Shown piece by piece: positions 4,269 through 64,000 of a stretch of DNA of 64,000 nucleotides. Under the pieces are notes generated by a model that was not told the DNA's origin, did not search any database, and saw only the letters and a program-made list of their open reading frames with translations. Both the position numbers and the translations under genes were made by a program. The DNA lies in sequence record OL964745.1. The stretch is one strand, 5' to 3'. Source of the DNA: Escherichia phage T4. Position 1 is the first letter of the stretch, and every line of letters begins with the position of its first letter.

Positions 4269-4436
4269 TACAATTTCCTCATTAATTGAACAGTGGAGCG
4301 ATACGTTTCAGAAGAGTATCAACACCTTTAGCGAATTTTCCATTTTATTCTCCAAGTTGTTTTCTGTATCAGTAGTTGATATTGATATAGTACCATAATC
4401 AACTACTGATGTATAGTTTTATGAAAAATTTAAACT

Positions 4437-4922
4437 TTATGCATAGAGAGCATTGCTATAGTGTTTAATCCAACTTTCAGGAATGACTTTGTATGTTCCT
4501 AAAAATACCACGTTGTACAACTTAACACCATCTTCTACCCATTGATCGGTAATGTATCCACACATAGCGCGAGTATAAACAACCCTTCCATCATCTTTAA
4601 TAAAGTTAAATTCACAAGGAGCAATGAACTTGATAGCCTGACCGAGTTTCCACTTAAAGTCTACACCTACATGCGAAGTATCAATCGTTTCAATTCCTTT
4701 AGCAGGAACAGCTTTTAAAAACGCAGACTCAAGAAATTTCGCACGAACATAGCCAAACTGGGGTTTAGACTTTCCATCTTTAGGAATGATACGCACTTTT
4801 ACTTCAGAATCTTCATCTTTAACACCATGCTTAAGCTGAATGCTTACAACTTCGACCAATTTTCCTGCTGCTTTAGAACGGGATTTATCAGATACACGAG
4901 CTAATTCACCAATATTAATCAT
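4437..4922 (-). CDS. motB: MotB-like early protein
   Basis: 161-aa ORF at the T4 motB position; shares a C-terminal domain with the next ORF. Confidence 0.5.
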   Translation of the reverse strand: MINIGELARVSDKSRSKAAGKLVEVVSIQLKHGVKDEDSEVKVRIIPKDGKSKPQFGYVRAKFLESAFLKAVPAKGIETIDTSHVGVDFKWKLGQAIKFIAPCEFNFIKDDGRVVYTRAMCGYITDQWVEDGVKLYNVVFLGTYKVIPESWIKHYSNALYA

Positions 4923-4998
4923 AGTTATCTCTCACTTGTTAAAAAGATTTTATACTCCACGGGACCATTATACTCTGGTCCCAAGAGTTTGTAAACTA

Positions 4999-5430: not shown

Positions 5431-5543
5431 AATTTTCTCTTTAGTTTAAGGTAATAAAGCCTTTTAGTTCGGCATAGGATTTTATTATCCTCAGTAGCTA
5501 TGGTGTTATAGTACCACAACTAACCGAGGAAGTAAACAACTTT

Positions 5544-6227
5544 TTATCGTTTTGTTGGAAGAGATAGAGGATCGCATTCTTCCTCTGATGGAGCATCTTC
5601 AAGACCCATAGCATATCGCAAAGCATACTTCATCATCAGGATGTCTTTCGCACAGTCATGAATAGAATCATGTGCAACGAATCCATCTAAAGTTCCCTTT
5701 GGAAGAGGACACGTTGTCATATCACGAACAAGCAGAAGTGCTTCAATTCTAGTACGAATATCACGCTGATTCCAAAATTTACAAGGTTCTAACTTAAATG
5801 TATCAAGCTCATTCTCGGAAACGCCGTTAAGACGTTGAATATCGCGAATAAGATCGACTAAAATTGGAAAATCAAACGACATTCCACGGCACCAGCCTTG
5901 AGATTTCCAAGGATCGATATTATGTGCATTGATGTAATCATTAAATTTTGCAATACCGTCGATAGTGCTTACATCTTCATCGGATGGTGCAATATTTTTT
6001 CGAGCTTCAGGAGATTGATTCTTCCACCATTCGATAGTACTTTTAGTAAAAAGACGGTGTCCTTTTTGGCTTTTTAAATCAAATTTGATTTTAATGCCAC
6101 GTGAAACTAATTCATCGAATGTTTCAACTACTTCTGGATTAGGGTCAAAAGCAATTACAGCCAAATCAATAACCGCTGCTTTTTCACCACTTCCCATTGT
6201 TTCAAAATCTATAATAAAATCAAACAT
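5544..6227 (-). CDS. dexA: exonuclease A (DexA), DnaQ-like 3'-5' exonuclease
   Basis: 227-aa ORF with DEDD-type motifs (FDFETMG, HDSIHDCAKD). Confidence 0.85.
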   Translation of the reverse strand: MFDFIIDFETMGSGEKAAVIDLAVIAFDPNPEVVETFDELVSRGIKIKFDLKSQKGHRLFTKSTIEWWKNQSPEARKNIAPSDEDVSTIDGIAKFNDYINAHNIDPWKSQGWCRGMSFDFPILVDLIRDIQRLNGVSENELDTFKLEPCKFWNQRDIRTRIEALLLVRDMTTCPLPKGTLDGFVAHDSIHDCAKDILMMKYALRYAMGLEDAPSEEECDPLSLPTKR

Positions 6228-11971: not shown

Positions 11972-11995
11972 ACAAAATTGCTTCCATAATTTTCC

Positions 11996-12229
11996 TCAAT
12001 CACAAGATGTAGATGAACAACTAGAATCACAAGAACTTCCACATGAATCACCTGCCCATACATGAACAGGAACATTAGTATCATATGAATCAGAACTAGA
12101 CTGTGTATTCTGTGTGTTAGATGATGTAGTAGGTGTTGACCAGCGCCAAGGATTTTTATAATATTCTTGGGCTTCTTCATAAGTCATAGTAACTGCTTCT
12201 ACTGTTCCATCTCCCATAAACATATTCAA
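11996..12229 (-). CDS. hypothetical Cys/Ser-rich protein (77 aa)
   Basis: C-terminal CGSSCDSSCSSTSCD. The overlapping 11968..12180 ORF is judged spurious. Confidence 0.4.
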   Translation of the reverse strand: MNMFMGDGTVEAVTMTYEEAQEYYKNPWRWSTPTTSSNTQNTQSSSDSYDTNVPVHVWAGDSCGSSCDSSCSSTSCD

Positions 12230-12334
12230 CTACAGTTAAAGGAAGGTAGTCATTTGAAATAGGAACTACACCTTCCCCAGGAGTTGTAGAGAAAAAATCC
12301 GTAAAGAAACTTTTAAACCAATTAAAGATAAACA

Positions 12335-12541
12335 TTACAAAAAGCCTCTTTTGAATTCGACTTGCTTCTCACCATAATCATATCGAATCTCTGCATTAAA
12401 TTCGACAGAACCATCTGCGTACATCATAAATGAATGCACAACAACTTCTGTAGACCATGGTTGTAGTTCATATTTCTTCATTACATGTCGTGAAATGATA
12501 ATATCTAAATCTTCATTTGGTTTAATCCAACGATTTAACAT
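12335..12541 (-). CDS. hypothetical protein (68 aa)
   Basis: ORF track. Confidence 0.4.
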   Translation of the reverse strand: MLNRWIKPNEDLDIIISRHVMKKYELQPWSTEVVVHSFMMYADGSVEFNAEIRYDYGEKQVEFKRGFL

Positions 12542-12604
12542 AGTACTCTCCTCTATAAGATAATTCTATTATACCATACTCATTTTGGAAAGTAAACCAT
12601 TTAA

Positions 12605-12633
12605 ATGAAAAAAGGACTCCCGAAGGAGTCCTT
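12605..12633 (-). terminator. rho-independent terminator after soc
   Basis: Minus RNA GGACUCC-UUCG-GGAGUCC followed by UUUUUU. Confidence 0.6.
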
Positions 12634-12639
12634 GAGTTA

Positions 12640-12882
12640 TTAACCAGTTACTTTCCACAAATCTTCATTTGCAGCAATCCATTCAGTACGTTGATTTTCT
12701 TCATATACTGTAGAATATGCTGCTTTTTCTGAAGGGAATGTCTGGTAATGAGCGCCAGAAATTTTGTGAACGTCAGAATAAAGAGGGAAAGCTACAGAAA
12801 TTTCCTTTCCTTCAATTTTCTTATTTCCATCTAATTTCTGCTCAAATGTTTTGATATTAACATAACCGCGAGTACTAGCCAT
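12640..12882 (-). CDS. soc: small outer capsid protein Soc
   Basis: 80-aa ORF MASTRGYVNIKTFEQKLDGNKKIEG... matches T4 Soc as recalled. Confidence 0.95.
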   Translation of the reverse strand: MASTRGYVNIKTFEQKLDGNKKIEGKEISVAFPLYSDVHKISGAHYQTFPSEKAAYSTVYEENQRTEWIAANEDLWKVTG

Positions 12883-12914
12883 GTAATTCTCCTTTATTTA
12901 AATTACATGATTAT

Positions 12915-13505
12915 TTATACATCTTCTTTTCTGAATAAGTAAATTAAATTCTTAAGAGCCGAACTTGTTACATCATATTTTCCTTTAAGCGCCTTTACAA
13001 CCGGGCCTGTTGCTGGTTTACCTAAAGAAACCCATAACTCGTGTATTTCGCTTTTAAGTGGTTCATGCCAATGCGGTGCTTTTCTTTGCGCCCTTGAAGT
13101 TCCTTCTGAAATCTTTTTATTTCCGCCATTCGAATAAAACTTTTTCATTACTTCAGATTGCCGAGCTTTTCTTTCTGCCCTATTTTGGGCTATACGTTGT
13201 GAATTCTTCATCCGAGTTTTTGTTTCAGGATTGTTTAATCTAAGTTTATGTTCTAATCGTTGTTGCTCAGTCCATTTTCTTCCTTCTCCACCCTGACCAC
13301 CAGGAGAAATATTAATGCAAGTATCTGGGTGTTTACGTTTTAATGCAGATTAGCTCACGTTCAACTTCATATGATTTTTCTCTAGAACCATGGCATTTTG
13401 ACCATCGTATTTTATAATTATCCATACTTACGATATATGTTCCATAGTATTTTACCTGAACCCGGATATTTATCATTATATGGATTTACAATAAATGATT
13501 CATGT
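12915..13505 (-). pseudogene. segF: segF-like homing endonuclease remnant in at least three frames
   Basis: Fragments ..YPGSGKILWNIYRKYG*, MDNYKIRWSKCHGSREKSYEVERELICIKT*, and a 144-codon C-terminal frame with ISPGGQGGEGRKWTEQQRLEHK; resemble SegA/SegB. No intact GIY-YIG N-terminus. Confidence 0.45.
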
Positions 13506-13514
13506 TTCCCAGCG

Positions 13515-13540
13515 TACCAAAAGACGCCTTTCGGCGTCCT
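13515..13540 (-). terminator. hairpin terminator after gene 56
   Basis: Minus RNA GACGCC-GAAA-GGCGUC followed by UUUUGG. Confidence 0.55.
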
Positions 13541-13572
13541 AACTTTTACTATATGTTCTATAAAATTTTTGT

Positions 13573-14103
13573 TTAATATCCATTATCTTGACGTTCAAAA
13601 TTATGTTTGTTCTTCAGATAATAAAGTTTAAAGATTTCTTCCGCATTCATTCCAAGGCCAACAAACATATTTAATACGAAATGAAATATATCCACAAGCT
13701 CAAATTTAATTTCGAGCTGGTCTTCGGGGGACATTTCATCAATGCGTTTTTCTTGCGCTTCAATATAACGTGCTTTCCATTTTTTCCATACAGCAGAAGC
13801 TTCTTTTTCACCACGTGACATTTCACCAAGAGAAGTCAGAAGTTCGCGGAATTCATCATCAATACAGTCTTTTTGTTCACGCATCCAAGAAACAACATCA
13901 CCGGCAGTTTCTAATTTATCTGGATGATAGCAGTATTCGCGGACATTAGCCAAACGAATCTGTAAAGACCGCTGCATATCAAGCATAACTTGCAGCGGAT
14001 CTTTTTCATCACCGAGAATATCCCAGTATTCATTTTGAGCTTTATCAACACCTTCGATCAAATGAGCACATTCATTAAAGTGAGCCATTAGTTTTCCTTT
14101 CAA
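13573..14103 (-). CDS. 56: dCTP/dUTP pyrophosphatase gp56 (MazG-like)
   Basis: 176-aa all-alpha ORF at the T4 gene 56 position. Confidence 0.8.
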   Translation of the reverse strand: MKGKLMAHFNECAHLIEGVDKAQNEYWDILGDEKDPLQVMLDMQRSLQIRLANVREYCYHPDKLETAGDVVSWMREQKDCIDDEFRELLTSLGEMSRGEKEASAVWKKWKARYIEAQEKRIDEMSPEDQLEIKFELVDIFHFVLNMFVGLGMNAEEIFKLYYLKNKHNFERQDNGY

Positions 14104-14123
14104 TTCATTAATAAGTTAAATAA

Positions 14124-14920
<797 letters not shown>

Positions 14921-15220
14921 ATTCTCTCATTTATTGCAGCAAAAATGAATTATACAATTCTTCATCATATGTATTTGATAGTAATACTAACACGTTTTGC
15001 GATAAATATTAATTTAAAGGAGGATATGGTACAAAAATTAATGGCACTTGTTAATGCCATAAAAGGTAATAAGAAACGTATAGCTTTTACTTTCTGCTAT
15101 GGTAGGAATTTTACTCTGGAACTTTATTTTATCACCTGTTGCAATTGCACATGGTGTTAATATTCCAGTAGTTACTCTTGATACATTCGTAGATTTAGCA
15201 TTTGCTTTAGTTGGGTTAAT

Positions 15221-17044: not shown

Positions 17045-17337
17045 TATTCACCTACCACTTCAGCGATGATATTTTTGTTATTAAAGTTTTTATCGCAATA
17101 CAGAACATAATTATACTGCATTACACCACCAGACTTAAGCTGTTTTTGCACTTCAGCTTTCATTTCAGGACGATCACGCTTAACGATATTCATAATATCT
17201 GCTTCAATTTGAGTTTCAACCTCAGTCTGATCCGCAGTCATAGACCATTCGCACAAATCTTTATCATAACCTGCCATAGCAGGCTGAGCAGCACAAGAAG
17301 CTAAAGCAAAAATTGTAGCAAAGATGAATTTTTTCAT
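17044..17337 (-). CDS. sp: Spackle (Sp) periplasmic protein
   Basis: 97-aa ORF with signal peptide MKKFIFATIFALASCAAQPAMA at the T4 sp position. Confidence 0.8.
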   Translation of the reverse strand: MKKFIFATIFALASCAAQPAMAGYDKDLCEWSMTADQTEVETQIEADIMNIVKRDRPEMKAEVQKQLKSGGVMQYNYVLYCDKNFNNKNIIAEVVGE

Positions 17338-17397
17338 GATAATCTCCTCAGTAGTTTATGTTTATATAGTATCTCAATTTCCAACAAAAGTAAACAG

Positions 17398-17697
17398 TTA
17401 TTTTAAAATTTCTGCGTAATCACATGTTACAAACTGTTTCTCTAACTTGACGATTTTACGAAAGTATCTTTTGCATTGGCGAATCTGCCTCTTCGTAGGG
17501 CGAACAGCAAACTTAATAAATTCCACTCGACCAAATGGAGGGCTTTCTTCTGCTGGAATATCTAACACCAATTCCCACGTATCTGCAATAAGTGCTTTGA
17601 ATTGCGTATTTTTCCTGACGTTATACGGAGTAGGTTTAAATAAAACAATATGCATATTATCCTCGGCAATCCACTTCACATACTTTCTTGTCATCAA
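17398..17697 (-). CDS. hypothetical protein (99 aa)
   Basis: ORF track. Confidence 0.4.
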   Translation of the reverse strand: MMTRKYVKWIAEDNMHIVLFKPTPYNVRKNTQFKALIADTWELVLDIPAEESPPFGRVEFIKFAVRPTKRQIRQCKRYFRKIVKLEKQFVTCDYAEILK

Positions 17698-17839: not shown

Positions 17840-17867
17840 AACAATCTCCTCATTTAACCGACAAGAC

Positions 17868-17898
17868 TACTATACCATAGTCTTGTCAGCTTGTAAAC
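17868..17898 (-). promoter_or_regulatory. T4 early promoter upstream of dmd
   Basis: Minus strand GTTTAC (rc 17893-17898) then TGGTATAGT (rc 17868-17876). Confidence 0.45.
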
Positions 17899-19325
17899 TA
17901 AAATTTTAATTCATTCGCCAAAGCATCTAACTGAGCTCGAGTCGATTCATTTCTTTGATAGCGATTCTGCTCAGCCTGAATCTGTTGTGAACCTGCTACT
18001 TCGTTCACTTCAGTTGGAGTAGAATCTTGTTCAATTTCTACCCATTTTTGATTTCCTTTTTGAACACCCATCAAAAACTTATTCCACTTATTCTTATCAC
18101 CATATCGTGATTTGATTTGCTTAATGAGTTGTTGTTCAGCAGCTGCTAGCTCCTCGGTTTCAATGACCGCAAGCATAAAATCGGCTGTTGCTGGAAGACC
18201 GGCAGATTCTGCAATATCGCTCATGTTAACATCGGAAGAGTCCCAAGCTTGTTTACCAACCTGTGCTGCAGTCCAAAGAACAGTTTCGGTTTCAACAGCC
18301 AGAGCACGTAATTCCTCTGCAATAGCTTTAACAGTTGTGTAACTATTTTCTGAATAAACTCTAATGCGGCAAGATTTACAAATACCTAGATAGTCGACAA
18401 TAATGATTGTTGGAACAAAATTCTTCTTGAGCTTCAATTCGTTTAAAAGTGATCGAAATGTATTAGCGTCTGCTCCACCAGTAGGATACTGTTTAACGAT
18501 TAAACGACCAAGAGTAGATTTCTCACGCCATTTTTCCATTTTTCCTTTATACTCAGCGTAAGAAATATGCCCATCATCAATGTCATCAAGAGAAACATCA
18601 AGCATATTAGCGTCAATACGTTTAGCACAGACTTCTTCTGCCATTTCCATGGAAATGTAAAGAACATTATGTCCGAGCTGTAAATAATCTGCCGCTAATG
18701 AACACAATCCTAATGATTTACCAACGTTAACGCCAGCCATTAAAACGTTCAGTGTTCCAGTTTCAGCTCCGCCTTTCGTAATTTTGTTCAGAATTCTGAG
18801 TTTAAATGGAACCTTACGAGCTTTATTCATATAAGATAGCCAACGTGCTTCGTAGTCATCCATCCAATCATGACCAACGTAACTATCAAATGAAATTGAT
18901 AATGCCTGGCGCATGATGTCAGGAATAGCACCAACATCCGGCATTTTCTTATTTCGTTTTTCCGGAGGAAGCTCAGCATTAGTTTGAATTTCGATTATTT
19001 TAGACGTAGCATTAAACATCGCCCTTTGCTGAACATATTTTTCTGTTTCTTTTACTAACCAGCTGTGGTCTTCCGGAGAATCAGCCAGTTTTGAAATAAG
19101 TGTTTTTACACCAGAATATTCTGTTTCAGTAAATGAACTATTTTCTAATGCAACATTTAACGCATTAATAGATGGAACGCTATGGTACTCATTAACATGA
19201 GATTTAATTAATTTGAATGTATTTTTAGCTGGACCACTTTCAAAATATTCTGAATCCATATATGGCCAAACTTTTGAAAAATAAGCTTGATCAAATATGA
19301 GATGAGAAAGAATAATTTCTACCAC
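17898..19325 (-). CDS. 41: replicative DNA helicase gp41 (DnaB-like)
   Basis: 475-aa ORF with Walker A GVNVGKS and RecA-like fold motifs. Confidence 0.95.
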   Translation of the reverse strand: MVEIILSHLIFDQAYFSKVWPYMDSEYFESGPAKNTFKLIKSHVNEYHSVPSINALNVALENSSFTETEYSGVKTLISKLADSPEDHSWLVKETEKYVQQRAMFNATSKIIEIQTNAELPPEKRNKKMPDVGAIPDIMRQALSISFDSYVGHDWMDDYEARWLSYMNKARKVPFKLRILNKITKGGAETGTLNVLMAGVNVGKSLGLCSLAADYLQLGHNVLYISMEMAEEVCAKRIDANMLDVSLDDIDDGHISYAEYKGKMEKWREKSTLGRLIVKQYPTGGADANTFRSLLNELKLKKNFVPTIIIVDYLGICKSCRIRVYSENSYTTVKAIAEELRALAVETETVLWTAAQVGKQAWDSSDVNMSDIAESAGLPATADFMLAVIETEELAAAEQQLIKQIKSRYGDKNKWNKFLMGVQKGNQKWVEIEQDSTPTEVNEVAGSQQIQAEQNRYQRNESTRAQLDALANELKF

Positions 19326-23917: not shown

Positions 23918-24310
23918 TCACTTAGTCAAATTTTTTACACATGAATTATAAGAATTCACTACATACTCCATCGGAGCGTTTTTACCTGTACGCCACTGGT
24001 AATTATTAGCCCAATTTGCCCAAAGCTCAGCGCAGTAGTTTTCAATTTTTTCTTCGCGTGTAATTACATCTGAATTACGATATGCTTGAGCAGATTCATC
24101 TGGACGAATAGCTTCGTCAAAATTCGCCTGCATTTGTTCTACTGTCTGTTTTGGAGCTTCTTTATAACACTTGACATTAGGATTATAAAATTTGCTTGAA
24201 CAGTTTACAATTTTTCCTACATCAGACTGATTTACTACCGGTCCTTGAGCTACACAACCAGCAAGACCTAATGCAATAACCAAAATAGCGATTTTCATTT
24301 CATTCTCCAA
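23918..24310 (-). CDS. lipoprotein (130 aa), imm.1-like
   Basis: Signal peptide with lipobox LAGC. Confidence 0.5.
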   Translation of the reverse strand: MENEMKIAILVIALGLAGCVAQGPVVNQSDVGKIVNCSSKFYNPNVKCYKEAPKQTVEQMQANFDEAIRPDESAQAYRNSDVITREEKIENYCAELWANWANNYQWRTGKNAPMEYVVNSYNSCVKNLTK

Positions 24311-24385
24311 ATCCGTATCAGTAGTTGATAGTTGTATAGTACCATGGAAGAACAGTCTTGTAAACAGTTTTGTGAAAAAATTTTT
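24305..24385 (-). repeat. conserved early promoter plus 5' leader element
   Basis: About 80-bp element also at 49601..49675, 60773..60862, 4347..4440, 48166..48225, 63647..63715; minus-strand core GTTTAC...GGTACTATACAACTATCAACTA...GGAG. Confidence 0.55.
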
Positions 24386-24447
24386 AGGGAATCCAAAGGG
24401 TCCAGAATCATCTCTTTTTCATAAGTATAGATTTATATTACTTGTAT

Positions 24448-24470
24448 GAAAAAGGGACCTGGAGGTCCCT
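24448..24470 (-). terminator. hairpin terminator after gene 43
   Basis: Minus RNA GGGACC-UCCA-GGUCCC followed by UUUUU. Confidence 0.55.
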
Positions 24471-24482: not shown

Positions 24483-27179
24483 TCAGCCAAACAGGAAGTC
24501 TAACGAAGCTTTTTCTTCATAGTCCATGCCAGCCGATTCACACATACCCGCAAGCGGTTTAACAAACGATTTTTGGAACAAAGTTGAGTGGTCAATCCAA
24601 GATAGCACATCAGAACGAATTTCTTTTGGAAGTTCTGTACCCGATGGCCAAGCAATGCACTTGTCACCAAATGGATTTCCTTCACGTAATGGAAGAACCA
24701 TTACTTTATTTCCATCCAAAATTGGAGCTACACCTAAACCGCTAACAGCTCGACGATAAGTTAGCACACCACGAATATGGAACGGGCATTTAAATCCTGG
24801 CCAACCTTTATCATCATATTTCGCTATATCGTTCGCAGTTTTTACTTCAGCAATAACTTTATAGTCAAGTTGACGATATTCTTTCTCGAAGTTCTTGTAG
24901 TATTCTTGGACAGACTCTTCACCTTCCTGAAGAATACGACGAATACTTTCTTCGAGAGCTTCTTGCACTGCTTTTGGTGTTGAACTCTGCTGAGTTTCCA
25001 TACCCATGATTTTTAGATGCGGTTCAGCAAATCGCTTATCTTCCATATCATAAACGTTCAGAGCATAACGCTTTTTCGCTTTCCAAAATCCACCAACGCC
25101 CTTTGAACCAAGCGGAGGGCAAGAAATAGCTTCACGGTCCATATGCATCAGATGCTCGCGGTTATTCATATAATCACATAACTCACGATATGCAACATCA
25201 ATCATAGGTTCCATCTTTTTCTTACCGAACTGATTCATGAATTCAACCAAATCGTTCTGCTCTTTGAATCGGTCAAGACCAACTTTTTCAATAACTTTAT
25301 CTACGCAAACATATACCGAATCAGTATCACCTGCTGCAATGAAATCTTCATCATTAGTTCCGCATACTTTATTCAGATATTCATTAATTTTACGAGCAAT
25401 CCACTGAATACCGACTTGGCCGAAAATTGTGATAGCAGTAGCATTTCGCAAATCATAGTAACGGAAATGAATATTACCAAGAGCACCATAAAGACTGTTA
25501 ATGAGAATTTTACGGTTCAGCTGATTTGTATTAGCAAGTGTAGCTGCTTTTTCACATTCTTCAATCAGACTATTGAGAACAGATTCGGTGTAATTCGATA
25601 GTTCATTTAAGAAATCATCACTGAACTTAACATATCGTTCAACTTCTGGTTTAGTTGAACAAGACCCTGCGCCTTTCATAATAATCTTTTTAATAGCTTC
25701 GGCATTCATTTCTTCAGCGAACATTTTCTTTTTCCAGTCTTTACGCTGGAAAAATACTTTAGCGATTTCCTTTGGAATGATACCTTCTTGATGTTTATCA
25801 TACATCCATCCATTCGGAGAACAAGAATATTCATCACTCGGTTTAGGAGCTGTTCCTGCGATATATTCATGAATTGGATGAACTTTAAACTGACCACGAA
25901 TAGTTTCAGGACTAATGTTAACCTGGCGAATAATGCTCGGATACAGAGACGTCAAGTCAAAACTCATAATGTATCGACGTGCAATTGGTTTAGGTTCAAA
26001 CACAAATGCACCCGGAAAACTCTGTTTAACGTGCGAACCTTGTTGAGGAATAACCTTATGTTCACCTTTCAATGAGTTAAAAATAATAGCATCCCAAGTT
26101 TTAATAGGACTCATTACACCAGAAAAAGGCATTTTAGCGTAATAAGACATACTTAAAACTAGATCGATAAACCCACGAATTTTATCGATTGCTTGAACTG
26201 ATTCTACGTCAATGATGTTATAACTAATGTATCGTTGATGATTAGTCTCACGAAGTTTATTAATAGGACCGTCGTATGGTAATTTACCTTTTTTGGTTTC
26301 ATGTTGAGCAACTGATTCCAAAGAGAATGACGGCAAATTAGTAAAAGCGAATTTCTTGTACAAATCTAAATAATCAAGAATAGATACGCCATCAATAGAA
26401 TAAATTTCTTTGCTACCGTACATATTTTGAATTAGTTTAGATTTTACCCGACCGATTGGAGAGAAACGTTTCATACTACGTTCACCCAGAATCATTTTAA
26501 CACGATTCATGATATACGGAACGTCAAACCCCTCAATATTCCAACCAGTAAAAATAGCAGGTCGTTTCTGTTCCCAAAGATTGATATATTCCATGAGCAT
26601 ATCACGCTCATTATCGAATGGCATATAAATTACTCGGTCAAGAATTTCTTGAGGAACTTCATCACCACCTTCACAGTCAAGCTTAGCAGCTAACTTTGCA
26701 TCCCATTTTGATACTGAACCGTACATTGAATTCAAAAGGTCGAAAACATAAAAACGATCGTCAATTGAATCGTAATGAGTGATAGCATCAATTTCATATT
26801 CTGCTTTCATTGGGTCAGGAAATTTATCACCAGTAACCTCAATGTCACAGTTAGCTACACGAACAAATTTTCGGTCATAAACAATTTCTGAACCATATGT
26901 ATCACTTATATAAGCGAGTTTAAAATCGTTCATACCGAGAGCTTCGAGACCGATGTCTTCCATTCGCTTCATCCAATCTCGAGCATCTTTCATTGATGGA
27001 AATTTTTGAGGAGCGCAGTTTTTACCATAGATGTCTTTGTATTTTGACTCTTCCTTACAATGCCTAAACATAGTTGGAAGATATTCTACTTCACGGGTAC
27101 GTTCCTTTCCATTTTCATCAATATAACGTTCAACAATGTTATTTCCGACTGTTTCAATAGAGATATAAAATTCTTTCAT
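24483..27179 (-). CDS. 43: DNA polymerase gp43 (family B)
   Basis: 898-aa ORF with exonuclease and polymerase motifs (YGGF..., DTDS). Confidence 0.97.
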   Translation of the reverse strand: MKEFYISIETVGNNIVERYIDENGKERTREVEYLPTMFRHCKEESKYKDIYGKNCAPQKFPSMKDARDWMKRMEDIGLEALGMNDFKLAYISDTYGSEIVYDRKFVRVANCDIEVTGDKFPDPMKAEYEIDAITHYDSIDDRFYVFDLLNSMYGSVSKWDAKLAAKLDCEGGDEVPQEILDRVIYMPFDNERDMLMEYINLWEQKRPAIFTGWNIEGFDVPYIMNRVKMILGERSMKRFSPIGRVKSKLIQNMYGSKEIYSIDGVSILDYLDLYKKFAFTNLPSFSLESVAQHETKKGKLPYDGPINKLRETNHQRYISYNIIDVESVQAIDKIRGFIDLVLSMSYYAKMPFSGVMSPIKTWDAIIFNSLKGEHKVIPQQGSHVKQSFPGAFVFEPKPIARRYIMSFDLTSLYPSIIRQVNISPETIRGQFKVHPIHEYIAGTAPKPSDEYSCSPNGWMYDKHQEGIIPKEIAKVFFQRKDWKKKMFAEEMNAEAIKKIIMKGAGSCSTKPEVERYVKFSDDFLNELSNYTESVLNSLIEECEKAATLANTNQLNRKILINSLYGALGNIHFRYYDLRNATAITIFGQVGIQWIARKINEYLNKVCGTNDEDFIAAGDTDSVYVCVDKVIEKVGLDRFKEQNDLVEFMNQFGKKKMEPMIDVAYRELCDYMNNREHLMHMDREAISCPPLGSKGVGGFWKAKKRYALNVYDMEDKRFAEPHLKIMGMETQQSSTPKAVQEALEESIRRILQEGEESVQEYYKNFEKEYRQLDYKVIAEVKTANDIAKYDDKGWPGFKCPFHIRGVLTYRRAVSGLGVAPILDGNKVMVLPLREGNPFGDKCIAWPSGTELPKEIRSDVLSWIDHSTLFQKSFVKPLAGMCESAGMDYEEKASLDFLFG

Positions 27180-33912: not shown

Positions 33913-35110
33913 ATTTTGTAATAATGTCAAACTGTTCTTTAAAGCAGAAGCTTGAATCTTGATGCTGATACAAAAATTCATATGCTTTTTCTCGCTCACG
34001 GTCATAAAGAGCTCGGTCAGATGACAGTTCTTTAATACGTTCAAATGTTGATTCCATATCATTTTCATCAAACCAAATGATACCGCTATCATGCGAGGTC
34101 AAAGGAGTATTATCAACACGGAATTTTAAATTTTCGCCAGTAGATTTCCAAAATACCGGAATTGTTCCACATGCACCAAGCTCGAGATGAGTATATTCGA
34201 GTGAGCGTTGTAAGTATTTCTGGTTAAGTTTACTCAACTGATATCCAAAGCCAGATTTACTCATTCGTTCAAGCATTTCACTATTAATATAACAATCTAG
34301 GATTTGTGCCGGTTGATTCGGCGCGAGATTCATTTTATCAATCTCACGATTACCGTAATATTCATACGGAATACCTTTTTCCTTAATTGCAATAAAAGCA
34401 GGGGAACGTTCCAGACCTTCCATTACAGTGGATTTACCAGCAGGTTTTAAGAATTTTTCATGAAAATCAAACATCTGGTAAAAACCTTTCCATGTAGTCG
34501 TACGACCAATCCAACGGTTGATATTCATGTTAATTTCAGAAACATCTTTCCAATAAGTTGACCGAACCTTCACAATATCCATAGGAGGCTGAAAATTATA
34601 TACTGTCGGTGCTTCTTCAATATCATCAAACAGAGAAACAGTTTCTGGATACCATTCTTTCATCAGAACTTTATTAAAATCACCATTATCAGAATGGCTA
34701 AAAATAACATCAGCTCGACGAACAGTTTCTTCTAATCCCAAATTTCGACGCAAAGAAAGAACAGAATGATCATGCTGATAAACTACAACACGAATAGAAG
34801 GTTTAATATTATCTAAAAGTTTTTTATAGTTAATCGTAGCTTCTTGAACGGAAGTAGCAGGAACAGAATTAATAATTAGAATATCACAATCATTTACTAG
34901 CTTAAGTGCTTTATCGTATTCTTTAGCTAAAATAACTGGAATTGAAAATGATTTGTGGTCATGAGAACTTGTACGAGTAAATGATTTATCTTTAGCATAA
35001 ACCAAAGTTACTTCATGACCATTTTTAATAAACCAATCACGTTGCTCGAGTGAGAATTTTGTTACACCACAACCTTCAAGACCTCGAGCCATAAAAATGC
35101 AAATACGCAT
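33911..35110 (-). CDS. agt: DNA alpha-glucosyltransferase
   Basis: 399-aa ORF beginning MRICIFMARGLEGCGVTKF. Confidence 0.9.
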   Translation of the reverse strand: MRICIFMARGLEGCGVTKFSLEQRDWFIKNGHEVTLVYAKDKSFTRTSSHDHKSFSIPVILAKEYDKALKLVNDCDILIINSVPATSVQEATINYKKLLDNIKPSIRVVVYQHDHSVLSLRRNLGLEETVRRADVIFSHSDNGDFNKVLMKEWYPETVSLFDDIEEAPTVYNFQPPMDIVKVRSTYWKDVSEINMNINRWIGRTTTWKGFYQMFDFHEKFLKPAGKSTVMEGLERSPAFIAIKEKGIPYEYYGNREIDKMNLAPNQPAQILDCYINSEMLERMSKSGFGYQLSKLNQKYLQRSLEYTHLELGACGTIPVFWKSTGENLKFRVDNTPLTSHDSGIIWFDENDMESTFERIKELSSDRALYDREREKAYEFLYQHQDSSFCFKEQFDIITK

Positions 35111-35158
35111 AGTTTTCCTCTTTTCATTTAATAAATCATGTAAATAATATTTTATTTT

Positions 35159-35940
35159 CTATAAAACGCTACGAATAGGCCCAAACATATCCATAAGCAA
35201 TTTTGCTTTTTCCAGATTGCACTTTTTAATATTAGACATGCATCCTTTAACGGATACAGCTGCGTCTTTAATTCTAGGAAATACTCGTAATAATTTTCCA
35301 GTAGTATCATATTGAAATACTGGCACATTTCTTTTCTGAGTTATCCCACGTAGATTTAGACATTTTTTGTTTAGTTGCATTAGACATCCTAGAGGGCTTT
35401 CCTATGTTATCAGAATAATATTTCCATTGAAATCCTCCAGCGGTTTTCCTTTTACCATCTACACATTGTTTAATTGAAGTTGAACAGCTATGACATATCT
35501 TCTGCAGCATCTGTAATACATCTATATTTGCGAATAAAATTTCCATTTAAATCATATTGATAAATTGGTTTTCCAGCATTTCGTCTAGCGTTAGACATGT
35601 ATTTATTATCATCTTTCCAGAACTCTTTCATGCTTTCCGATATTGAAGAAGATACAGCTGTTTTAATCCATCCATACATTATTATTTAGTCTTGTTCCGT
35701 CAGAACTATAACATCATACGAATAGCTAAAGCCAATTTAGGAAGTCTATAAATTTTAAATAATAAATGCGCGGTAAAATGTTCTTCTGGTGTCAAAAGAA
35801 CTAAATTAGTTTTATCATCTGTACCACCCATACATCTAGGAATTATATGATGTGTTTCAGTATAGTATGTCAAAAGACTTTTATCATTGCCTCTGTTTAG
35901 TCCTTTTTCGATCAGTAAATTATATGTTTAAATAATTCAT
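35159..35940 (-). pseudogene. mobB: HNH homing endonuclease remnant with tandem DNA-binding repeats (mobB-like)
   Basis: ATG at 35940 (MNYLNI*), then HNH motif TETHHIIPRCMGGTDDKTNLVLLTPEEHFTAHLL in another frame; three track ORFs carry repeats PIYQYDLNGNFIRKYRCITDAAEDM and PVFQYDTTGKLLRVFPRIKDAAV. Confidence 0.5.
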
Positions 35941-35967
35941 TTTAGTTTATTTTACCAAAAAATTTAT

Positions 35968-35992
35968 AAAGCAATAGGAGCCGAAGCTCCTA
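35968..35992 (-). terminator. UUCG hairpin
   Basis: Minus RNA GGAGC-UUCG-GCUCC. Confidence 0.4.
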
Positions 35993-36181
35993 TCCACATA
36001 ATACGCCATACAGAGGCTCGTTAGAACTTTTAAATTTTATGCGCTTATATGTTATAGTTCCTTCTGCTTTAGCTTTATCATGAGCCTCTTTAAAGCGTCT
36101 CATCATTTCCTCTCTAGAGGAACGAATTTTATTATAATCTATTTCAGAAGTCGGATGTTCATCTTTCACAGTTGCCACCAT
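35990..36181 (-). CDS. hypothetical protein (63 aa)
   Basis: ORF track. Confidence 0.4.
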   Translation of the reverse strand: MVATVKDEHPTSEIDYNKIRSSREEMMRRFKEAHDKAKAEGTITYKRIKFKSSNEPLYGVLCG

Positions 36182-47632: not shown

Positions 47633-48220
47633 TTATGCGAGTACCGTATTTAACCGTTCTTCAAACTTCCGAAGAGTGTTCTGGCGTTCAGCTCTTTGCT
47701 TTTTGTAAGTTTCAATACGCTCTGAAATGAGAGTGTATCGTTCATTTACTGATTCTTTCATAAAATCAGGAATTTCACGAGAAGCTTTAATCTCGTCAAA
47801 TTTATCAATAACAGCTTGCTCTTCAGCAATTAAGTTATCATACATCAAAATATCTTTCTTGATGAACTCAATATCTTCTTGAGTTACACGAGATAATTTA
47901 GATGCTTTATCCTTTTTGTACTGTTCGTTAGTATCACGAGACCAGTGTAATGTACGATTTTTATTCGTATTCTTGTAAATTTCTACAATACCAATCTCAT
48001 CGATAATAACGATCCAATTCCAACGGGATTTGTAAATTTGTCCTCCATTAACAGTGATTTCACCTCCGATTGAGATGTCATTAAAGAACTTGCTTTGTGC
48101 TTCTGATTTAAATTTACCATCGTTGTAATTTACCAGGTTGAAAATATCTTTAGCGTTCATTTTGTGTTCCTCCGTAGTTGATAGTTGTATAGTACCACAG
48201 AGGAACGGTCTTGTAAACAA
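47633..48220 (-). CDS. hypothetical protein (195 aa)
   Basis: ORF track. Confidence 0.45.
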   Translation of the reverse strand: MFTRPFLCGTIQLSTTEEHKMNAKDIFNLVNYNDGKFKSEAQSKFFNDISIGGEITVNGGQIYKSRWNWIVIIDEIGIVEIYKNTNKNRTLHWSRDTNEQYKKDKASKLSRVTQEDIEFIKKDILMYDNLIAEEQAVIDKFDEIKASREIPDFMKESVNERYTLISERIETYKKQRAERQNTLRKFEERLNTVLA

Positions 48221-48535
48221 CTAAAAGAAACTTCTTTCACAATTTTTTCCACTGAACCAAGCGCTCACTGCTTTCTTAGTTTCAGGAGCAGTGTTATCCA
48301 TAAACCATTCAAAGGCAGCCTTTTTATGATTCTGGAGGGCTTCTCGGGCTTTAATCTGCTCACGGTCTATTAACACTAACATATGAGCCTTTCTTGTCAC
48401 CAGGGGCTTCTTATGATTTTTTGAATACTCCCAATCATTTGTCCATCGCATCGTTGTTGCGAATTGAAATACAGCTTCTTTAATCTTAGTTTCGTAAATT
48501 TCACGAGCCTTTGAGTATAACATCATTACCTCCAT
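48221..48535 (-). CDS. hypothetical protein (104 aa)
   Basis: ORF track. Confidence 0.4.
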   Translation of the reverse strand: MEVMMLYSKAREIYETKIKEAVFQFATTMRWTNDWEYSKNHKKPLVTRKAHMLVLIDREQIKAREALQNHKKAAFEWFMDNTAPETKKAVSAWFSGKNCERSFF

Positions 48536-48625: not shown

Positions 48626-49606
48626 TTATTTCAGAAGAGTAACCGTAGCGATTTCTTCCCAACCGTTTTTGTCGGTCATAATAAAGTCAGCAAGATAAAG
48701 TGCAGTACGCAGTGAAACATTACGTAAACGGTTAACATTGACTTTCATCCATGATAATGCTTTATAAGTTTCTTCATCAGAAAGACCACGCTTTTGCATC
48801 ATGTCGGTTGAAAGAATAACATCTTCAACCCTGACCATAATTTCTTCATTAGTGTGAACACCCAAATCCAAATAAACTGAGCGGGACACTAATGCTTGTA
48901 AATGTGGAGCAAGTTTAGTACCACGGTCTAATTCGCGGTCAATGTCAACGTTTGTGATAAAAACAATTGTTCCTTTAAATTCAAACTCACGCTCAATGCC
49001 TTTTTCTTCTAAGTAAGAAGATGCAGTGCTCCAGCAGACTTTACGGGTCTCTCCAGTGTCCAGAGCAGCTTTCAGAAGATTAAGAATGTCCATATCAGAG
49101 AAAACATCCACATCATCAATCAAAAGGACAGAATTCTCTTCACGATTATTCCAAAGCTGTTCATAAAGACCGATACCAGAGATTTTACCGTTAATGCTTT
49201 TATACTCAATGTATCCAATATCATTTGCTTTATTCAAAGCTTTATCTAAAGAATATGTTTTACCAATACCCGCCGCACCAGAGATAATTAATGAACGAAT
49301 ATTTCCGTTAATAATACCATTCGTCATCATTCCCATAACATTAAATCTTTTATTAATGCGGGTTTTCATATCTTCATATGATTCTTTAACTTCTTCAACT
49401 TTTACACCATCATATGAAATGTCTGATTTGTAAACCCAAACACCGCGACGTTTACCGTCAATTTCAACAAAAACTTTACCATCTCCTTGTGCATCTACCG
49501 GAGCATTATCAGGGAACCATTCACCTAAGAGCTCAAAAGTTCCAGAGATTTCTTTACCGAAGTAGATACCCTTATTGATAGTTACAGTTTTCATTTTATT
49601 CTCCAA
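48626..49606 (-). CDS. AAA+/P-loop ATPase of unknown function (326 aa)
   Basis: Walker A ISGAAGIGKT and Walker B VLLIDDVD. Confidence 0.55.
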   Translation of the reverse strand: MENKMKTVTINKGIYFGKEISGTFELLGEWFPDNAPVDAQGDGKVFVEIDGKRRGVWVYKSDISYDGVKVEEVKESYEDMKTRINKRFNVMGMMTNGIINGNIRSLIISGAAGIGKTYSLDKALNKANDIGYIEYKSINGKISGIGLYEQLWNNREENSVLLIDDVDVFSDMDILNLLKAALDTGETRKVCWSTASSYLEEKGIEREFEFKGTIVFITNVDIDRELDRGTKLAPHLQALVSRSVYLDLGVHTNEEIMVRVEDVILSTDMMQKRGLSDEETYKALSWMKVNVNRLRNVSLRTALYLADFIMTDKNGWEEIATVTLLK

Positions 49607-49680
49607 ATCCGTATCAGTTGATAGTTGTATAGTACCATAAAGCTTTATGCTTGTAAACCGTTTTGTGAAAAAATTTTGAA

Positions 49681-49708
49681 ATAAAAAAGGGAGCCCGAAG
49701 GCTCCCTA
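49681..49708 (-). terminator. UUCG hairpin terminator
   Basis: Minus RNA GGGAGCC-UUCG-GGCUCCC followed by UUUUUU. Confidence 0.6.
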
Positions 49709-50799: not shown

Positions 50800-51016
50800 G
50801 CCATGTGAGTTGCAACTTCATCACACATTATAACGTTTCTTAAGAAGTTCTACAAGTTCTTCACTAGTAACTTCATCCATGTCGACGAAAAAATCACCAT
50901 TAATGATGACGTAGATATTTCCTTCTTGATTGAGTGCTTCAATTTTCATGATGTTCTCCTCTTTATCCGATGGTTGTATAGTACCACAGCTCAAACGGAA
51001 AGTAAACCGGTAAAAT

Positions 51017-51042
51017 GAAAAAAAGTCTCCCGAAGGAGACTA
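51017..51042 (-). terminator. UUCG hairpin terminator
   Basis: Minus RNA GUCUCC-UUCG-GGAGAC followed by UUUUUUU. Confidence 0.6.
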
Positions 51043-55092: not shown

Positions 55093-55509
55093 TTATGCAT
55101 AAATCGCCTTACCGTAGTATTTGTACCAAGTAGGACGTTGTGCAATTTTTTCATCTAAACGAGCTTGTGATATAGCAATAGAAGCTTCATGGGGAATATA
55201 ATCACCACGGAATTCCTGAGGAATATCACTAATATCCTGGACTGTAGTATCCTTGATATTAAAACCACGTTTTAAACATTCAGCTATAAGCTCAATTTGA
55301 CGTTTACGTAAGAACTCGAGCTTATCGTAAAAGAATGTAACATGACCTGCGCCAAGGATAAAAGTAGGACTGATTTTAAAATCACGAACACGTTTACCGT
55401 TAGCAACATGCTTACGAACTGCACCAAAAACACGCGGCAATTCACGATATTCAGCCATTAAGTGTTGGTCAGCCAATTCAGATACTAAAGTAAGGTTGAT
55501 ACGAGTCAT
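55093..55509 (-). CDS. denV: endonuclease V (DenV), pyrimidine-dimer DNA glycosylase
   Basis: 138-aa [30 protein letters not shown]... Confidence 0.95.
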
Positions 55510-55569
55510 TTTAGTGTTCTCCTGTAGTTGATAGGTCTATAGTATCATACCTACAGGAGATGTAAACTG

Positions 55570-55872
55570 TTATTTATCTTTAATTGCTTTAGCTGCTTCG
55601 ATAGCCGCTTGCTGAAGGTCATCCATAGACATGCCGAACTTAGAAGCAAAGTTATCAATTTTCTTTTCGACGGCATTCAAAGGCTTGGCCTGTTTACCTT
55701 CATTAGCGCCAGGAAGAGCGAGAATACGCTCTCTGTCAATATAAAGGCTTACAAGTTTCTTACGGTCTTTATCGGGCAAATCATGAAATGAATGGGCCTT
55801 TTTATTTACAGCGGCTTCTAATTTACCTGCGCCCACTCGCGCTTCGGCAATAAATTCTTGATATGTTTTCAT
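55570..55872 (-). CDS. ipII: internal protein II
   Basis: 100-aa ORF beginning MKTYQEFIAEA (capsid targeting sequence). Confidence 0.85.
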   Translation of the reverse strand: MKTYQEFIAEARVGAGKLEAAVNKKAHSFHDLPDKDRKKLVSLYIDRERILALPGANEGKQAKPLNAVEKKIDNFASKFGMSMDDLQQAAIEAAKAIKDK

Positions 55873-60502: not shown

Positions 60503-60829
60503 TTATTTCATATTATTGAAATATTCTTCTGCGATTTCGTCGTTATCATGGTAAACTTTAGAAGACAGTTTAACATAACTTTCAGCAGTGAACATGTTAA
60601 TCACAACCTTTACAGTATACCACTGACCGTCTTCATTACCCATTACTGCGTAAGTTTCAAACATCGGATGGTCAGGACCGATAACTTTAATATCATTCAC
60701 CGTACGACCGAAATCTTCTGAAACACATTTCATAAAGAAGTTGAAAAGTTCACCGTAATTATCCATTTTATTCTCCAAGTTATTTTCTGTATCAGTAGTT
60801 GATAGTTGTATAGTACCATGGAAGAACAA
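60503..60829 (-). CDS. hypothetical protein (108 aa)
   Basis: ORF track. Confidence 0.4.
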   Translation of the reverse strand: MFFHGTIQLSTTDTENNLENKMDNYGELFNFFMKCVSEDFGRTVNDIKVIGPDHPMFETYAVMGNEDGQWYTVKVVINMFTAESYVKLSSKVYHDNDEIAEEYFNNMK

Positions 60830-61039
60830 GGATGTAAACAGTTTTGTGAAAAAATTTTTAAAAAGTTTTAGGGAATTCTAGGGCGGAGAGGGGCAATTAA
60901 AAGATAGGATAATATATTATAAAGGGTATAAACTAAATGATGCCTAGAGAGGTCTGGAAAGGCTTAGATACCAAAAAGCCCCAACCTTTCGGTCGGGGCT
61001 AAGCCTTGCGGCAACCTTGTCGGGGTTCCACCTGCCAAG

Positions 61040-63457: not shown

Positions 63458-63643
63458 TTATTCACCTTTAGAAATTTTATCCATAACGATAGCAATTAAA
63501 CCAATTAAAAATGCTACTACAAGTGAAAACACATTTTCTGCTGTAGTTAATAATCCGCATATAAATCCAACAAACATTGAAAAACTAAAAGCAGAAGCAG
63601 AAATTGCAATAGCAACATTTCGAATTAATTCACAGCGTTTCAT
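63458..63643 (-). CDS. small membrane protein (61 aa)
   Basis: Two hydrophobic helices. Confidence 0.4.
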   Translation of the reverse strand: MKRCELIRNVAIAISASAFSFSMFVGFICGLLTTAENVFSLVVAFLIGLIAIVMDKISKGE

Positions 63644-63719
63644 TTTATTCTCCTCAGTAGTTGATAGGGTAATAGTATCACAGCTAAAACCCTATGTAAA
63701 CAACTTTGTGAAATATTTA

Positions 63720-64000
63720 TTACAAAAGATTTTTAGCAATAATCTTGAGATGTGCCGCAGAAATGTGTTTAGCTTTAAACAACGCAGTTTCTTCAGCAGG
63801 AGAGATAACGATTGTAGCACCATCCTTTTTAGCAGACCACCCATCACCTAGGTAAACAGTACCTTTGATTTCTTCGCCATCAACCAGACTAATCATTGGT
63901 TTACCTTCTCGTCCTTTATTTGCTTTAATAACTTCAGAAGTAAGAGTAGCTTCGGTAATGGTAGAAACCGGGGTAGTTGTAGAAGTAAATTCTTTAAATG
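63720..64000 (-). CDS. hypothetical protein, 3' portion only (5' end beyond window)
   Basis: Open frame from the window edge to TAA at 63720-63722 (...GDGWSAKKDGATIVISPAEETALFKAKHISAAHLKIIAKNLL*). Confidence 0.45.
   Translation of the reverse strand, partial: FKEFTSTTTPVSTITEATLTSEVIKANKGREGKPMISLVDGEEIKGTVYLGDGWSAKKDGATIVISPAEETALFKAKHISAAHLKIIAKNLL

Follow-up and report, generated by a model that had tools for sequence, protein, structure and literature searches.

A TACTAT subfamily of bacteriophage T4 early promoters: dispersed promoter-leader cassettes at imm.1 and other early genes

The imm.1 locus and the dispersed copies of its cassette

The window analysed in this work, i.e. the whole stretch of 64,000 nucleotides of Escherichia phage T4 DNA in the record OL964745.1, corresponds to about positions 2200-73871 of the T4 genome (AF158101) according to the whole-window alignment, with the early genes all on the minus strand. 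At the locus under study, an intrinsic terminator 3' of gene 43 closes the upstream transcription unit before the cassette that drives imm.1 (Table 1). The 3 kb around it, which include gene 43, imm.1, imm and gene 42, are 100% identical to phage T4 strains, and protein-based retrieval from IMG/VR yielded only five imm.1 loci, all near-identical. Compared to T4, five blocks (457, 2045, 905, 2046 and 2054 bp) are missing from the window, together with 87 shorter stretches of 1-4 nt each, nearly all of them A/T. The main copies of the element are untouched by these deletions, and none of the five large deletion junctions (0/5) falls inside a listed copy. One of these junctions (54996/7) truncates the early promoter of regB, and the cef copy is 2 nt shorter in the window than in T4, with the deletion in its -35 area.

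The copies share a common layout: an A/T-rich UP tract, GTTTAC, a spacer of 18 nt with TGG at its end, TACTAT, ACAACT, ATCAACTAC, GGAG and ATG. Ten copies in the window precede imm.1, nrdC.10, e.8, cef, nrdC.8, trna.4, mobD.5, denV, sp and motB.2, and six more are found in T4 outside the window, at motA, ndd.6, ndd.4, frd.3, frd.1 and ipI. The initial annotation had listed seven copies, all of which (7/7) were recovered at their coordinates on the minus (coding) strand by a repeat finder and by a promoter-anchored scan, and had left out three members of the set (denV, sp and motB.2). Every copy lies on the minus strand directly upstream of an annotated early-region gene, and several are located just 3' of an intrinsic terminator, as in the case of nrdC.10, where a terminator at 49688-49707 adjoins the UP tract. 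The motB.2 copy corresponds to position 8194 of T4 and hence, by position, to the promoter cited as P8.1 (PMC2988021).

Table 1. Features of the imm.1 reference copy and further copies of the cassette in the window
Feature	Coordinates	Strand	Remarks
imm.1 coding sequence	23918..24298	-	126 aa; N terminus lipoprotein-like; driven by the cassette
Shine-Dalgarno/RegB-S1-type site GGAGAATGAAA and imm.1 ATG (GGAGAATGAAATG)	24296..24308	-	sequence and PMC1702504
Mid-leader TGATACGGATTT, imm.1 copy	24309..24320	-	
Discriminator ACAACT and initial transcribed sequence ATCAACTAC, imm.1 copy	24321..24335	-	
ATCAACTAC alone, imm.1 copy	24329-24321	-	
-10 hexamer TACTAT, imm.1 copy	24336..24341	-	
Spacer AAGACTGTTCTTCCATGG, imm.1 copy	24342..24359	-	18 nt; TGG at end (extended -10 TGn)
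-35 hexamer GTTTAC, imm.1 copy	24360..24365	-	
UP-element-like A/T-rich tract ATTCCCTAAAAATTTTTTCACAAAACT, imm.1 copy	24366..24392	-	
Intrinsic terminator hairpin and T run, 3' of gene 43	24453..24470	-	M37159: annotated putative termination signal
nrdC.10 copy	49592..49685	-	full cassette with GGAGAATAAAATG; U76612: terminator, -35 and -10 of 'early promoter 54.4'
e.8 copy	60764..60866	-	full cassette, leader ATCAACTACTGATACAGAAAATAACTTGGAGAATAAAATG
cef copy	4341..4443	-	e.8-type leader, degenerate -35
nrdC.8 copy	48158..48245	-	short leader
trna.4 copy	63641..63728	-	short leader, GGAGAATAAAATG; adjoins polymorphic ipI locus
mobD.5 copy	50947..51034	-	initial transcribed sequence divergent
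denV copy	55507..55594	-	absent from the initial annotation
sp copy	17335..17422	-	absent from the initial annotation
motB.2 copy	5478..5564	-	absent from the initial annotation; ORF behind it deleted in window

The -35 hexamer GTTTAC is present in 9 of the 10 window copies, the exception being cef. The spacer is the variable part of the cassette family in sequence, and comprises 18 nt (17 in denV) with TGG or TGA ahead of TACTAT; a consensus scan reads the copies as -35/17/-10 promoters with TG before the -10 hexamer. The leaders differ mainly in their middle part. Within T4, the mid-leader TGATACGGATTT is common only to imm.1, nrdC.10 and ndd.6, and the nrdC.10 leader contains 3 nt fewer than that of imm.1. 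In e.8, cef and motA the mid-leader begins with TGATACAGAA instead, and e.8 and cef share ATCAACTACTGATACAGAAAA-AACTTGGAGAATAAAATG in place of the imm.1-type leader. The copies that had been termed partial turned out to be copies with short leaders, in which ATCAACTAC runs straight, or almost straight, into the Shine-Dalgarno sequence (SD). Near-identity of the copies, as claimed initially, thus holds over shorter blocks and with indels allowed, but not for the leader as a whole, since exact and 3-mismatch searches with the full 39-nt leader string returned the imm.1 copy only, and the 30-nt leader quoted initially is likewise exact at imm.1 alone.

The repeat itself far exceeds the chance level. 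TACTAT-N6-ATCAACTAC with up to two mismatches has eight matches in the window, all on the minus strand, compared to 0.33 expected, a count reached in none of 100 dinucleotide shuffles, and chance is thereby excluded. In addition, CTATCAACTAC has five exact matches, each located 4 nt past a TACTAT, and GGAGAATAAAATG with up to one mismatch has six matches, against 0.30 expected from dinucleotide shuffles. The initial annotation had argued for conservation well beyond the promoter, and had named similarity limited to the -35/-10 hexamers as the observation that would speak against it. We found that the 16 nt following the -10 hexamer are identical (16/16) in all pairs of imm.1, e.8, motA and ndd.6, and that the proximal UP tract of these copies is nearly identical, whereas most of their spacers match at only 7-9 of 18 positions. 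The similarity is therefore not confined to the hexamers, and the condition named initially does not refute the claim.

Promoter make-up and the TACTAT subfamily

The repeated element of about 80-100 bp is real, and it is confirmed to consist of a long-known T4 early promoter, a short 5' leader and a ribosome-binding/RegB site. Its promoter make-up is established both by the sequence and by public annotation: the UP tract, GTTTAC, TGn, the -10 hexamer and the early gene downstream, together with the annotation of the nrdC.10 copy in GenBank U76612, bear out the initial reading as an early promoter followed by a leader. The element is thus already known: it is the early promoter of T4 in its classical form, complete with the leader and a RegB-sensitive site for ribosome binding, and represents no new kind of element. 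A literature search for the motif string returned nothing relevant. The early cassettes of T4 are standard textbook material, and Liebig & Rueger (1989, J Mol Biol 208:517) and Miller et al. (2003) are said to be the sources for the T4 early (Pe) promoters. These promoters have the architecture UP/-35/TGn/-10, and their alignments show 'additional regions of consensus' (Hinton 2010, PMC2988021).

In the whole T4 genome we found 37 promoters of the type GTTTAC-N17/18-TAnnnT, 15 of which have TACTAT as the -10 hexamer and 22 another one. The two groups differ in their matches to ATCAACTAC (Mann-Whitney p = 5e-5), and only in the TACTAT class are the UP tract and, 3' of the -10 hexamer, ACAAC-T-ATCAACTAC strongly conserved. 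Within this class both AAAAATTTTTTCACAAAAC and, in the UP tract, TTTTCACAAAAC are near-invariant, and an A/T-rich tract of the UP type is present upstream of the -35 hexamer. When all T4 early promoters are taken together, the majority consensus contains the '+1 region' in a weaker form, ctatcaa, which is more general still in RB69; the first few nucleotides of the leader are therefore part of the promoter consensus. The coherent TACTAT/ATCAACTAC subfamily, in which conserved sequence flanks a variable spacer on either side, accounts for about 40% of the early promoters of T4.

We consider it highly probable that the copies are complete T4 immediate-early expression cassettes, all of a single TACTAT subfamily. 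At the DNA level, each would constitute a very strong sigma-70 promoter, with a UP tract for the alpha C-terminal domains, GTTTAC, an 18-nt spacer with TGn, and TACTAT. Judging from these elements, the copies are expected to act as strong early promoters that use the unmodified host sigma-70 RNA polymerase immediately after infection and need no phage protein synthesis, an expectation to which the annotation 'early promoter 54.4' and the literature on the P8.1 and motA promoters lend indirect support. Transcription would begin at the A of CTATCAAC, as suggested by the 7-nt distance from the -10 hexamer and by the pyrimidine-purine step, which places the probable start of imm.1 at A 24329. The resulting 5' leader, AUCAACUAC..., would be short, G-poor and essentially unstructured, and would lead into GGAG 5-7 nt before AUG. 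In several copies the SD lies within GGAGAAUAAAA, the published target at which RegB, assisted by S1, cleaves early mRNAs and so inactivates them, and a burst of expression right after infection would therefore be followed by a post-transcriptional switch-off. In this way the cassettes may let T4 seize host RNA polymerase and ribosomes in the first minutes and then silence the early messages. In the TACTAT class, whose 15 T4 members are conserved on both sides of the variable spacer, the similarity past the hexamers would have three likely sources, namely the '+1 region' CTATCAA, which is general among early promoters of the T4 type, the module of RegB/S1 site and SD, and gene conversion or recombination among paralogous copies.

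The leader, the RegB site and the spacer hairpins

RegB, together with the ribosomal protein S1, targets the single-stranded 11-nt sequence GGAGAAUAAAA, requires no particular sequence 5' of GGAG, and its substrates exhibit no other conserved position in 48-nt windows (Durand et al. 2006, PMC1702504). Since nothing 5' of GGAG is needed, RegB accounts only for the last 11 nt of the element and not for ATCAACTAC. This published RegB/S1 site matches exactly the 3' end of the element, GGAGAATAAAA, and four window copies (nrdC.10, e.8, cef and trna.4) carry the exact 11-mer. The imm.1 copy is one base off, with a G at position 8, which is one of the three most conserved A positions. GGAG is present in all copies but motB.2, whose GGAU is reported to be cut (PMC1702504). 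In denV, mobD.5 and nrdC.8 the A-rich tract that follows GGAG contains a C and thus departs from the C-free consensus AAUAAAA, in agreement with the weak or absent cleavage reported for these mRNAs (poor for denV, none for the resistant mobD.5, moderate for nrdC.8), while motA is reported as a good substrate (PMC1702504). By their sequences, the imm.1, nrdC.10 and e.8 mRNAs are candidate RegB substrates.

The leader shows no sign of a stable fold. Leaders folded from the putative +1 have minimum free energies of 0 to -3.9 kcal/mol, no better than those of shuffled sequences, with z about 0 or positive in six of seven cases, and a search of the whole window against Rfam 15 at the gathering score matched tRNAs and the nrdD group I intron only, leaving the element unmatched. 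Part of the leader sequence recurs in related phages. At denV, imm.1 and nrdC.8, ATCAACTAC is retained in RB69 at 9/9 positions, with the discriminator and spacer diverged there, and it is also found in e.8 of RB69, in nrdC.8 of JS98 and at a gene of Moon. Among 11 orthologous pairs of T4 and RB69 promoters, the initial transcribed sequence (ITS) is 54% identical, the UP tract 52% and the spacer 37%; the ITS is kept at 9/9 positions in three pairs and is variable in the other eight. With 54% identity overall and full retention in three pairs only, ATCAACTAC is a recurrent module rather than a universal requirement. Different leaders can follow the TACTAT promoters of other T4-like phages, where the mid-leader occurs in variants of both length and sequence. 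A strict coupling of TACTAT and ATCAACTAC was accordingly rejected, given the other leaders in T4-like phages and the ITS kept in 3/11 RB69 pairs. We also discarded the RB69 e.8 match as evidence for constraint, as RB69 and T4 are about 95% identical over the entire locus.

About half of the T4 early promoters have predicted promoter-spanning hairpins, often over the SD.

Pairing between the spacer and the leader was assessed for 38 T4 early promoters, in which the RNA duplex of a promoter's own spacer with its own leader has a mean energy of -11.3 kcal/mol, compared to -6.9 +/- 0.40 kcal/mol for permuted pairings. None of 20,000 permutations was as low, and RB69, T6 and the window itself gave the same result. 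In 19 T4 promoters the duplex reaches -10 kcal/mol or stronger, and for about 13 of them at least 3 of the 4 SD nucleotides are paired in the predicted fold. Within the window, the nrdC.8 spacer pairs with its own SD at -20 kcal/mol, the denV spacer CTCCTGTAG pairs with the SD-containing CTACAGGAG, and the cef spacer ATCAGTAGTTGAT is a perfect inverted repeat of cef's own ATCAACTACTGAT; the long-leader copies mostly lack a hairpin. The denV pairing exhibits a compensatory change between T4 (CTCCTGTAG/CTACAGGAG) and RB69 (TTCCTCCAAG/CTTGGAGGAA), as do the regB and motB.2 orthologues. The duplex of the sense RNA exceeds that of the antisense RNA in stability in T4 and T6, which suggests G-U pairs and a role at the RNA level in these two phages, but this asymmetry was not replicated in RB69 (p = 0.33). 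Promoters with an upstream terminator show only a weak trend towards weaker hairpins (Mann-Whitney p = 0.03, Fisher p = 0.23). It is tantalizing to consider this cognate-specific and statistically strong complementarity of spacer and leader/SD as a general device of translational insulation; if so, read-through transcripts of the hairpin genes could not be translated, in contrast to those that start at the gene's own promoter.

Origin of the similarity and relationship to known systems

Several other explanations of the similarity have to be weighed against the reading of the copies as expression cassettes. That the similarity arose by chance or from the low complexity of A/T-rich intergenic DNA has in its favour the A/T richness of the UP tract and nothing more; this explanation is already refuted, with a practically vanishing probability, by the shuffles mentioned above and by the strand, register and position before the ATG that all copies have in common. 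We regard it as possible, though not probable, that the sequence from the +1 region to the SD is functionless hitch-hiking, i.e. that recent duplicates are kept alike by gene conversion and that selection acts on the promoter and the SD/RegB site only. The patchwork differences between T4 and T6 indeed match paralogues within the same genome: T6 imm.1 combines the spacer of T6 e.8 with a 3-nt-shorter, nrdC.10-type ITS, from which T4 imm.1 differs (the T6 record labels the imm.1 repeat 'attL'). The T4 frd.3 promoter is chimeric, being identical to that of nrdC.10 through +9 and divergent beyond, and the ndd.6 copy includes the imm.1 leader together with the first four codons of imm.1, giving rise to an 8-codon ORF that overlaps the ndd.6 start. 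The imm.1 leader of RB69 is short and lacks TGATACGGATTT, so that the long leader of T4 imm.1 looks paralogue-derived, and the mid-leader variants of other phages point in the same direction. Together with the 3.7-kb T4/T6 indel described below, these cases are direct sequence evidence that the copies convert one another and occasionally act as crossover points for gene-sized indels, and exchange among paralogues, which is part of the preferred reading as well, appears to be the best explanation of the near-identical mid-leader TGATAC(G/A)GA... and of the T4/T6 patchwork. However, conversion should homogenise the spacers too, and most of these are unrelated between flanks that are identical; conserved flanks around a variable spacer favour constraint on the flanks. 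Moreover, ATCAACTAC is retained across genera even at loci with diverged flanks. A dedicated function may be suspected for the 5' part of the leader. In this respect, one could imagine that the invariant 5' leader AUCAACUAC, with or without UGAUAC(G/A)GA, is a dedicated cis-acting RNA signal, conserved as such and not as a part of the promoter. It could be a tag read by a factor of the host or the phage, e.g. one that enhances translation through S1, that determines decay from the 5' end, or that is targeted in early shut-off. The identity after the -10 hexamer in the long-leader set beside near-random spacers, the retention of ATCAACTAC at the three RB69 loci with diverged flanks and its presence in JS98 and Moon would fit such a signal, as would a leader that is G-poor and unstructured, like S1 ligands, and a shut-off of early promoters whose mechanism is unexplained according to the literature (PMC2988021). 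We nevertheless consider it unlikely: RegB/S1 is indifferent to the sequence 5' of GGAG and the published logo is empty elsewhere in the 48-nt windows, the ITS is not kept in 8 of the 11 orthologous pairs, other TACTAT promoters of T4-like phages have other leaders, the +1 consensus that is general to early promoters already covers the first 5-7 nt, and gene conversion among multiple copies could keep the motif without any function. With similarly low confidence we put forward a broader proposal, in which the 5' leader AUCAACUAC(UG) is a functional tag for a trans-acting factor and the hairpins restrict translation to transcripts from the gene's own promoter. About 1/4 to 1/3 of the immediate-early mRNAs of T4 would begin with AUCAACUAC(UG), which is seen again at orthologous genes of other Tevenvirinae genera; if the proposal were true, the tag might be read e.g. 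by the early shut-off activity, or by a 5'-end-dependent control of translation or decay.

Less likely still is that the element primarily serves as a recombination cassette of the PeSL (promoter-early stem-loop) type, conserved because it mediates the modular shuffling of adjacent small genes. T6 lacks a 3.7-kb region of T4 (62799-66483) comprising vs.3 to vs.8, denV, ipII and ipIII, and at the junction in T6 the upstream region of ipIII is fused to the regB promoter inside TGTTTACTTT, i.e. in the -35 region of both early promoters. The replacement of ipI between T4 and T6 has the trna.4 copy as one boundary, and the imm.1-imm pair, located between 43 and 42 in T4, is found between 61.4 and sp in RB69, with these promoters flanking it. 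Other phages have the same cassette before different genes, and PeSLs provide a precedent, which includes a remark of their authors on the IP locus of T-even phages (PMC2839356). On the other hand, the ends of T4/T6 indel blocks are not significantly enriched at promoter cassettes (3/48 vs 1.67 expected, P = 0.23), the homology used in the crossover, in the -35 region, was no longer than about 10 bp and T4 is reported to recombine at 2-10 bp of homology at other loci, no recombinase or specific motif has been implicated, and promoter function alone suffices to explain the conservation. The initial suggestion that the copies are natural substrates for recombination is thus supported by specific cases, whereas indel ends show no general enrichment: recombination can use the copies as substrates, but a preference for them is not demonstrable.

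The preferred reading, in which the copies are immediate-early expression cassettes, can be compared with four known systems. PeSL cassettes were described in RB49 and phi1 (Arbiol et al. 2010, PMC2839356), and the same work remarked on promoter/stem-loop repeats of the T-even IP locus (Repoila et al. 1994), terming the T-even elements analogues rather than homologues. In both cases conserved early-promoter cassettes are dispersed over the genome and extend from an upstream stop codon or terminator to the SD-ATG of the downstream gene, crossovers between copies appear to take place, and many early promoters of T4 are overlapped by a stem-loop. Among the differences between T4 and T6, one clean promoter-to-promoter indel and one boundary case were observed, with no enrichment overall; the ipI boundary and the relocation of imm.1-imm fit the PeSL model and its authors' remark. 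However, PeSLs are promoters of the sigma-70 consensus with G/C-rich stem-loops and are not homologous to the T4 copies, of which the long-leader ones mostly have no promoter-spanning stem-loop. The G/C-rich terminator stem-loop inside the cassette, by which a PeSL is recognised, is lacking here: the terminators, where present, are separate upstream hairpins, and the spacer-leader pairing in long-leader copies reaches -2.4 to -9.9 kcal/mol, with poor ranks.

The spacer hairpins, on the other hand, resemble those that mask the translation-initiation regions of T4 e, soc, 49 and I-TevI (PMC3014915), in that the spacers of nrdC.8, denV, motB.2 and mobD.5 are complementary to their own SD; therefore transcripts started upstream would mask the SD and those from the internal promoter would not. 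The documented hairpins differ in that they contain late promoters, whereas the hairpins described here involve early promoters and are predicted. With the RegB/S1 site, the cassettes share the exact 11-mer in nrdC.10, e.8, cef and trna.4, its single-stranded character and its overlap with the SD. This likeness is confined to the last 11 nt, and denV, mobD.5 and nrdC.8 possess the 5' leader and yet are poor, resistant and moderate substrates, respectively. With the T4 early (Pe) promoters the copies share the UP tract, GTTTAC, TGn, the -10 hexamer, the conserved +1 region and the location on the counter-clockwise strand before early genes. From these they differ in nothing essential, and our finding amounts to the delineation, among them, of a subfamily in which TACTAT is followed by ACAACTATCAACTAC.

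Predicted pairing between promoter spacers and their own leaders

In about half of the T4 early promoters, the spacer between the -35 and -10 hexamers is predicted to form a hairpin with the leader of the same cassette, often covering the Shine-Dalgarno (SD) sequence. The T4 duplexes between cognate spacers and leaders have an energy of -11.3 kcal/mol vs -6.9 +/- 0.4 for permuted pairs, and none of 20,000 permutations reached the cognate value; the same result was obtained again in RB69 and T6. Moreover, comparison of T4 with RB69 reveals compensatory changes in the hairpin arms at denV, regB and motB.2. The predicted hairpins may mask translation on transcripts that read through from upstream. 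The strongest sites in the window are listed in the table.

The cef copy (window 4372-4410) carries such complementarity in the form of a perfect 13-nt inverted repeat, in which the spacer arm ATCAGTAGTTGAT and the leader arm ATCAACTACTGAT flank the -10 hexamer. Its -35 hexamer is degenerate (ATATAC) in both T4 and T6, and in T6 its SD reads GAAG, not GGAG.

Hairpin sites, missing blocks and small-indel clusters in the window
Feature	Window position	Gene or region
Strong hairpin	5478-5564	motB.2
Strong hairpin	17840-17900	dmd promoter
Strong hairpin	48158-48245	nrdC.8
Strong hairpin	50160-50220	
Strong hairpin	55507-55594	denV
Strong hairpin	55880-55960	ipII
Missing block, 457 bp	5479-5482	motB.2
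Missing block, 2045 bp	40057	nrdG-mobC-nrdD exon
Missing block, 905 bp	44154/5	nrdC.3
Missing block, 2046 bp	49827/8	nrdC.11-mobD
Missing block, 2054 bp	54996/7	vs.3-vs.8
Small-indel cluster	1-5500	
Small-indel cluster	11700-15100	
Small-indel cluster	34800-36000	mobB
Small-indel cluster	43700-45200	
Small-indel cluster	50000-53600	
Small-indel cluster	56000-57999	

Departures of the window from reference T4

Five blocks of T4 AF158101 are missing from the window, with microhomology of just 0-4 nt at the junctions; three of the blocks differ in size by at most 10 bp from 2048 bp. The regB promoter loses its -35 hexamer to the deletion at 54996/7. This five-block structure was found in none of the records of the phage collection. 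The window also differs from T4 by 87 small deletions (1-4 nt, mostly 2 nt, and almost all of A/T) and ten single-base insertions, about 12 of these indels falling in or around mobB. Because they would frameshift many ORFs, the small indels look less like natural variation than like errors of assembly or base calling, or intentional changes.

Recombination between cassettes

T6 lacks 3.7 kb of T4 (vs.3 to vs.8, denV, ipII and ipIII; approximately window 54996-56640). The junction, at about 60991-61008 of AP018814 (locus L018) vs T4 62798/66484, lies inside TGTTTACTTT, the -35 region common to the ipIII and regB early promoters, and the difference is a clean promoter-to-promoter recombination. 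Elsewhere in T6, the imm.1 promoter copy (24507-24546, locus L017) carries the GenBank label "attL", presumably an annotation artefact, i.e. an automatic call of a prophage tool set off by the dispersed repeat.

Outside the window, the ndd.6 promoter (T4 166997-167070, locus L006) has a leader of the imm.1 type with a perfect GGAGAATAAAATG, and its region also includes codons 1-4 of imm.1 (MKIA). The arrangement yields an unannotated 8-codon ORF, MKIAEIEL, whose stop overlaps the ATG of ndd.6 (ATGA). It is possible that this is a coupling mini-ORF that arose by cassette recombination.

A direct repeat of 84% identity (window 55841-55914 and 56538-56611) lies upstream of, and extends into, ipII and ipIII. 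It runs from the leader through the SD into the start of the coding sequence (MKTYQEFIAEA), and it agrees with the repeated heads known for the internal-protein genes.
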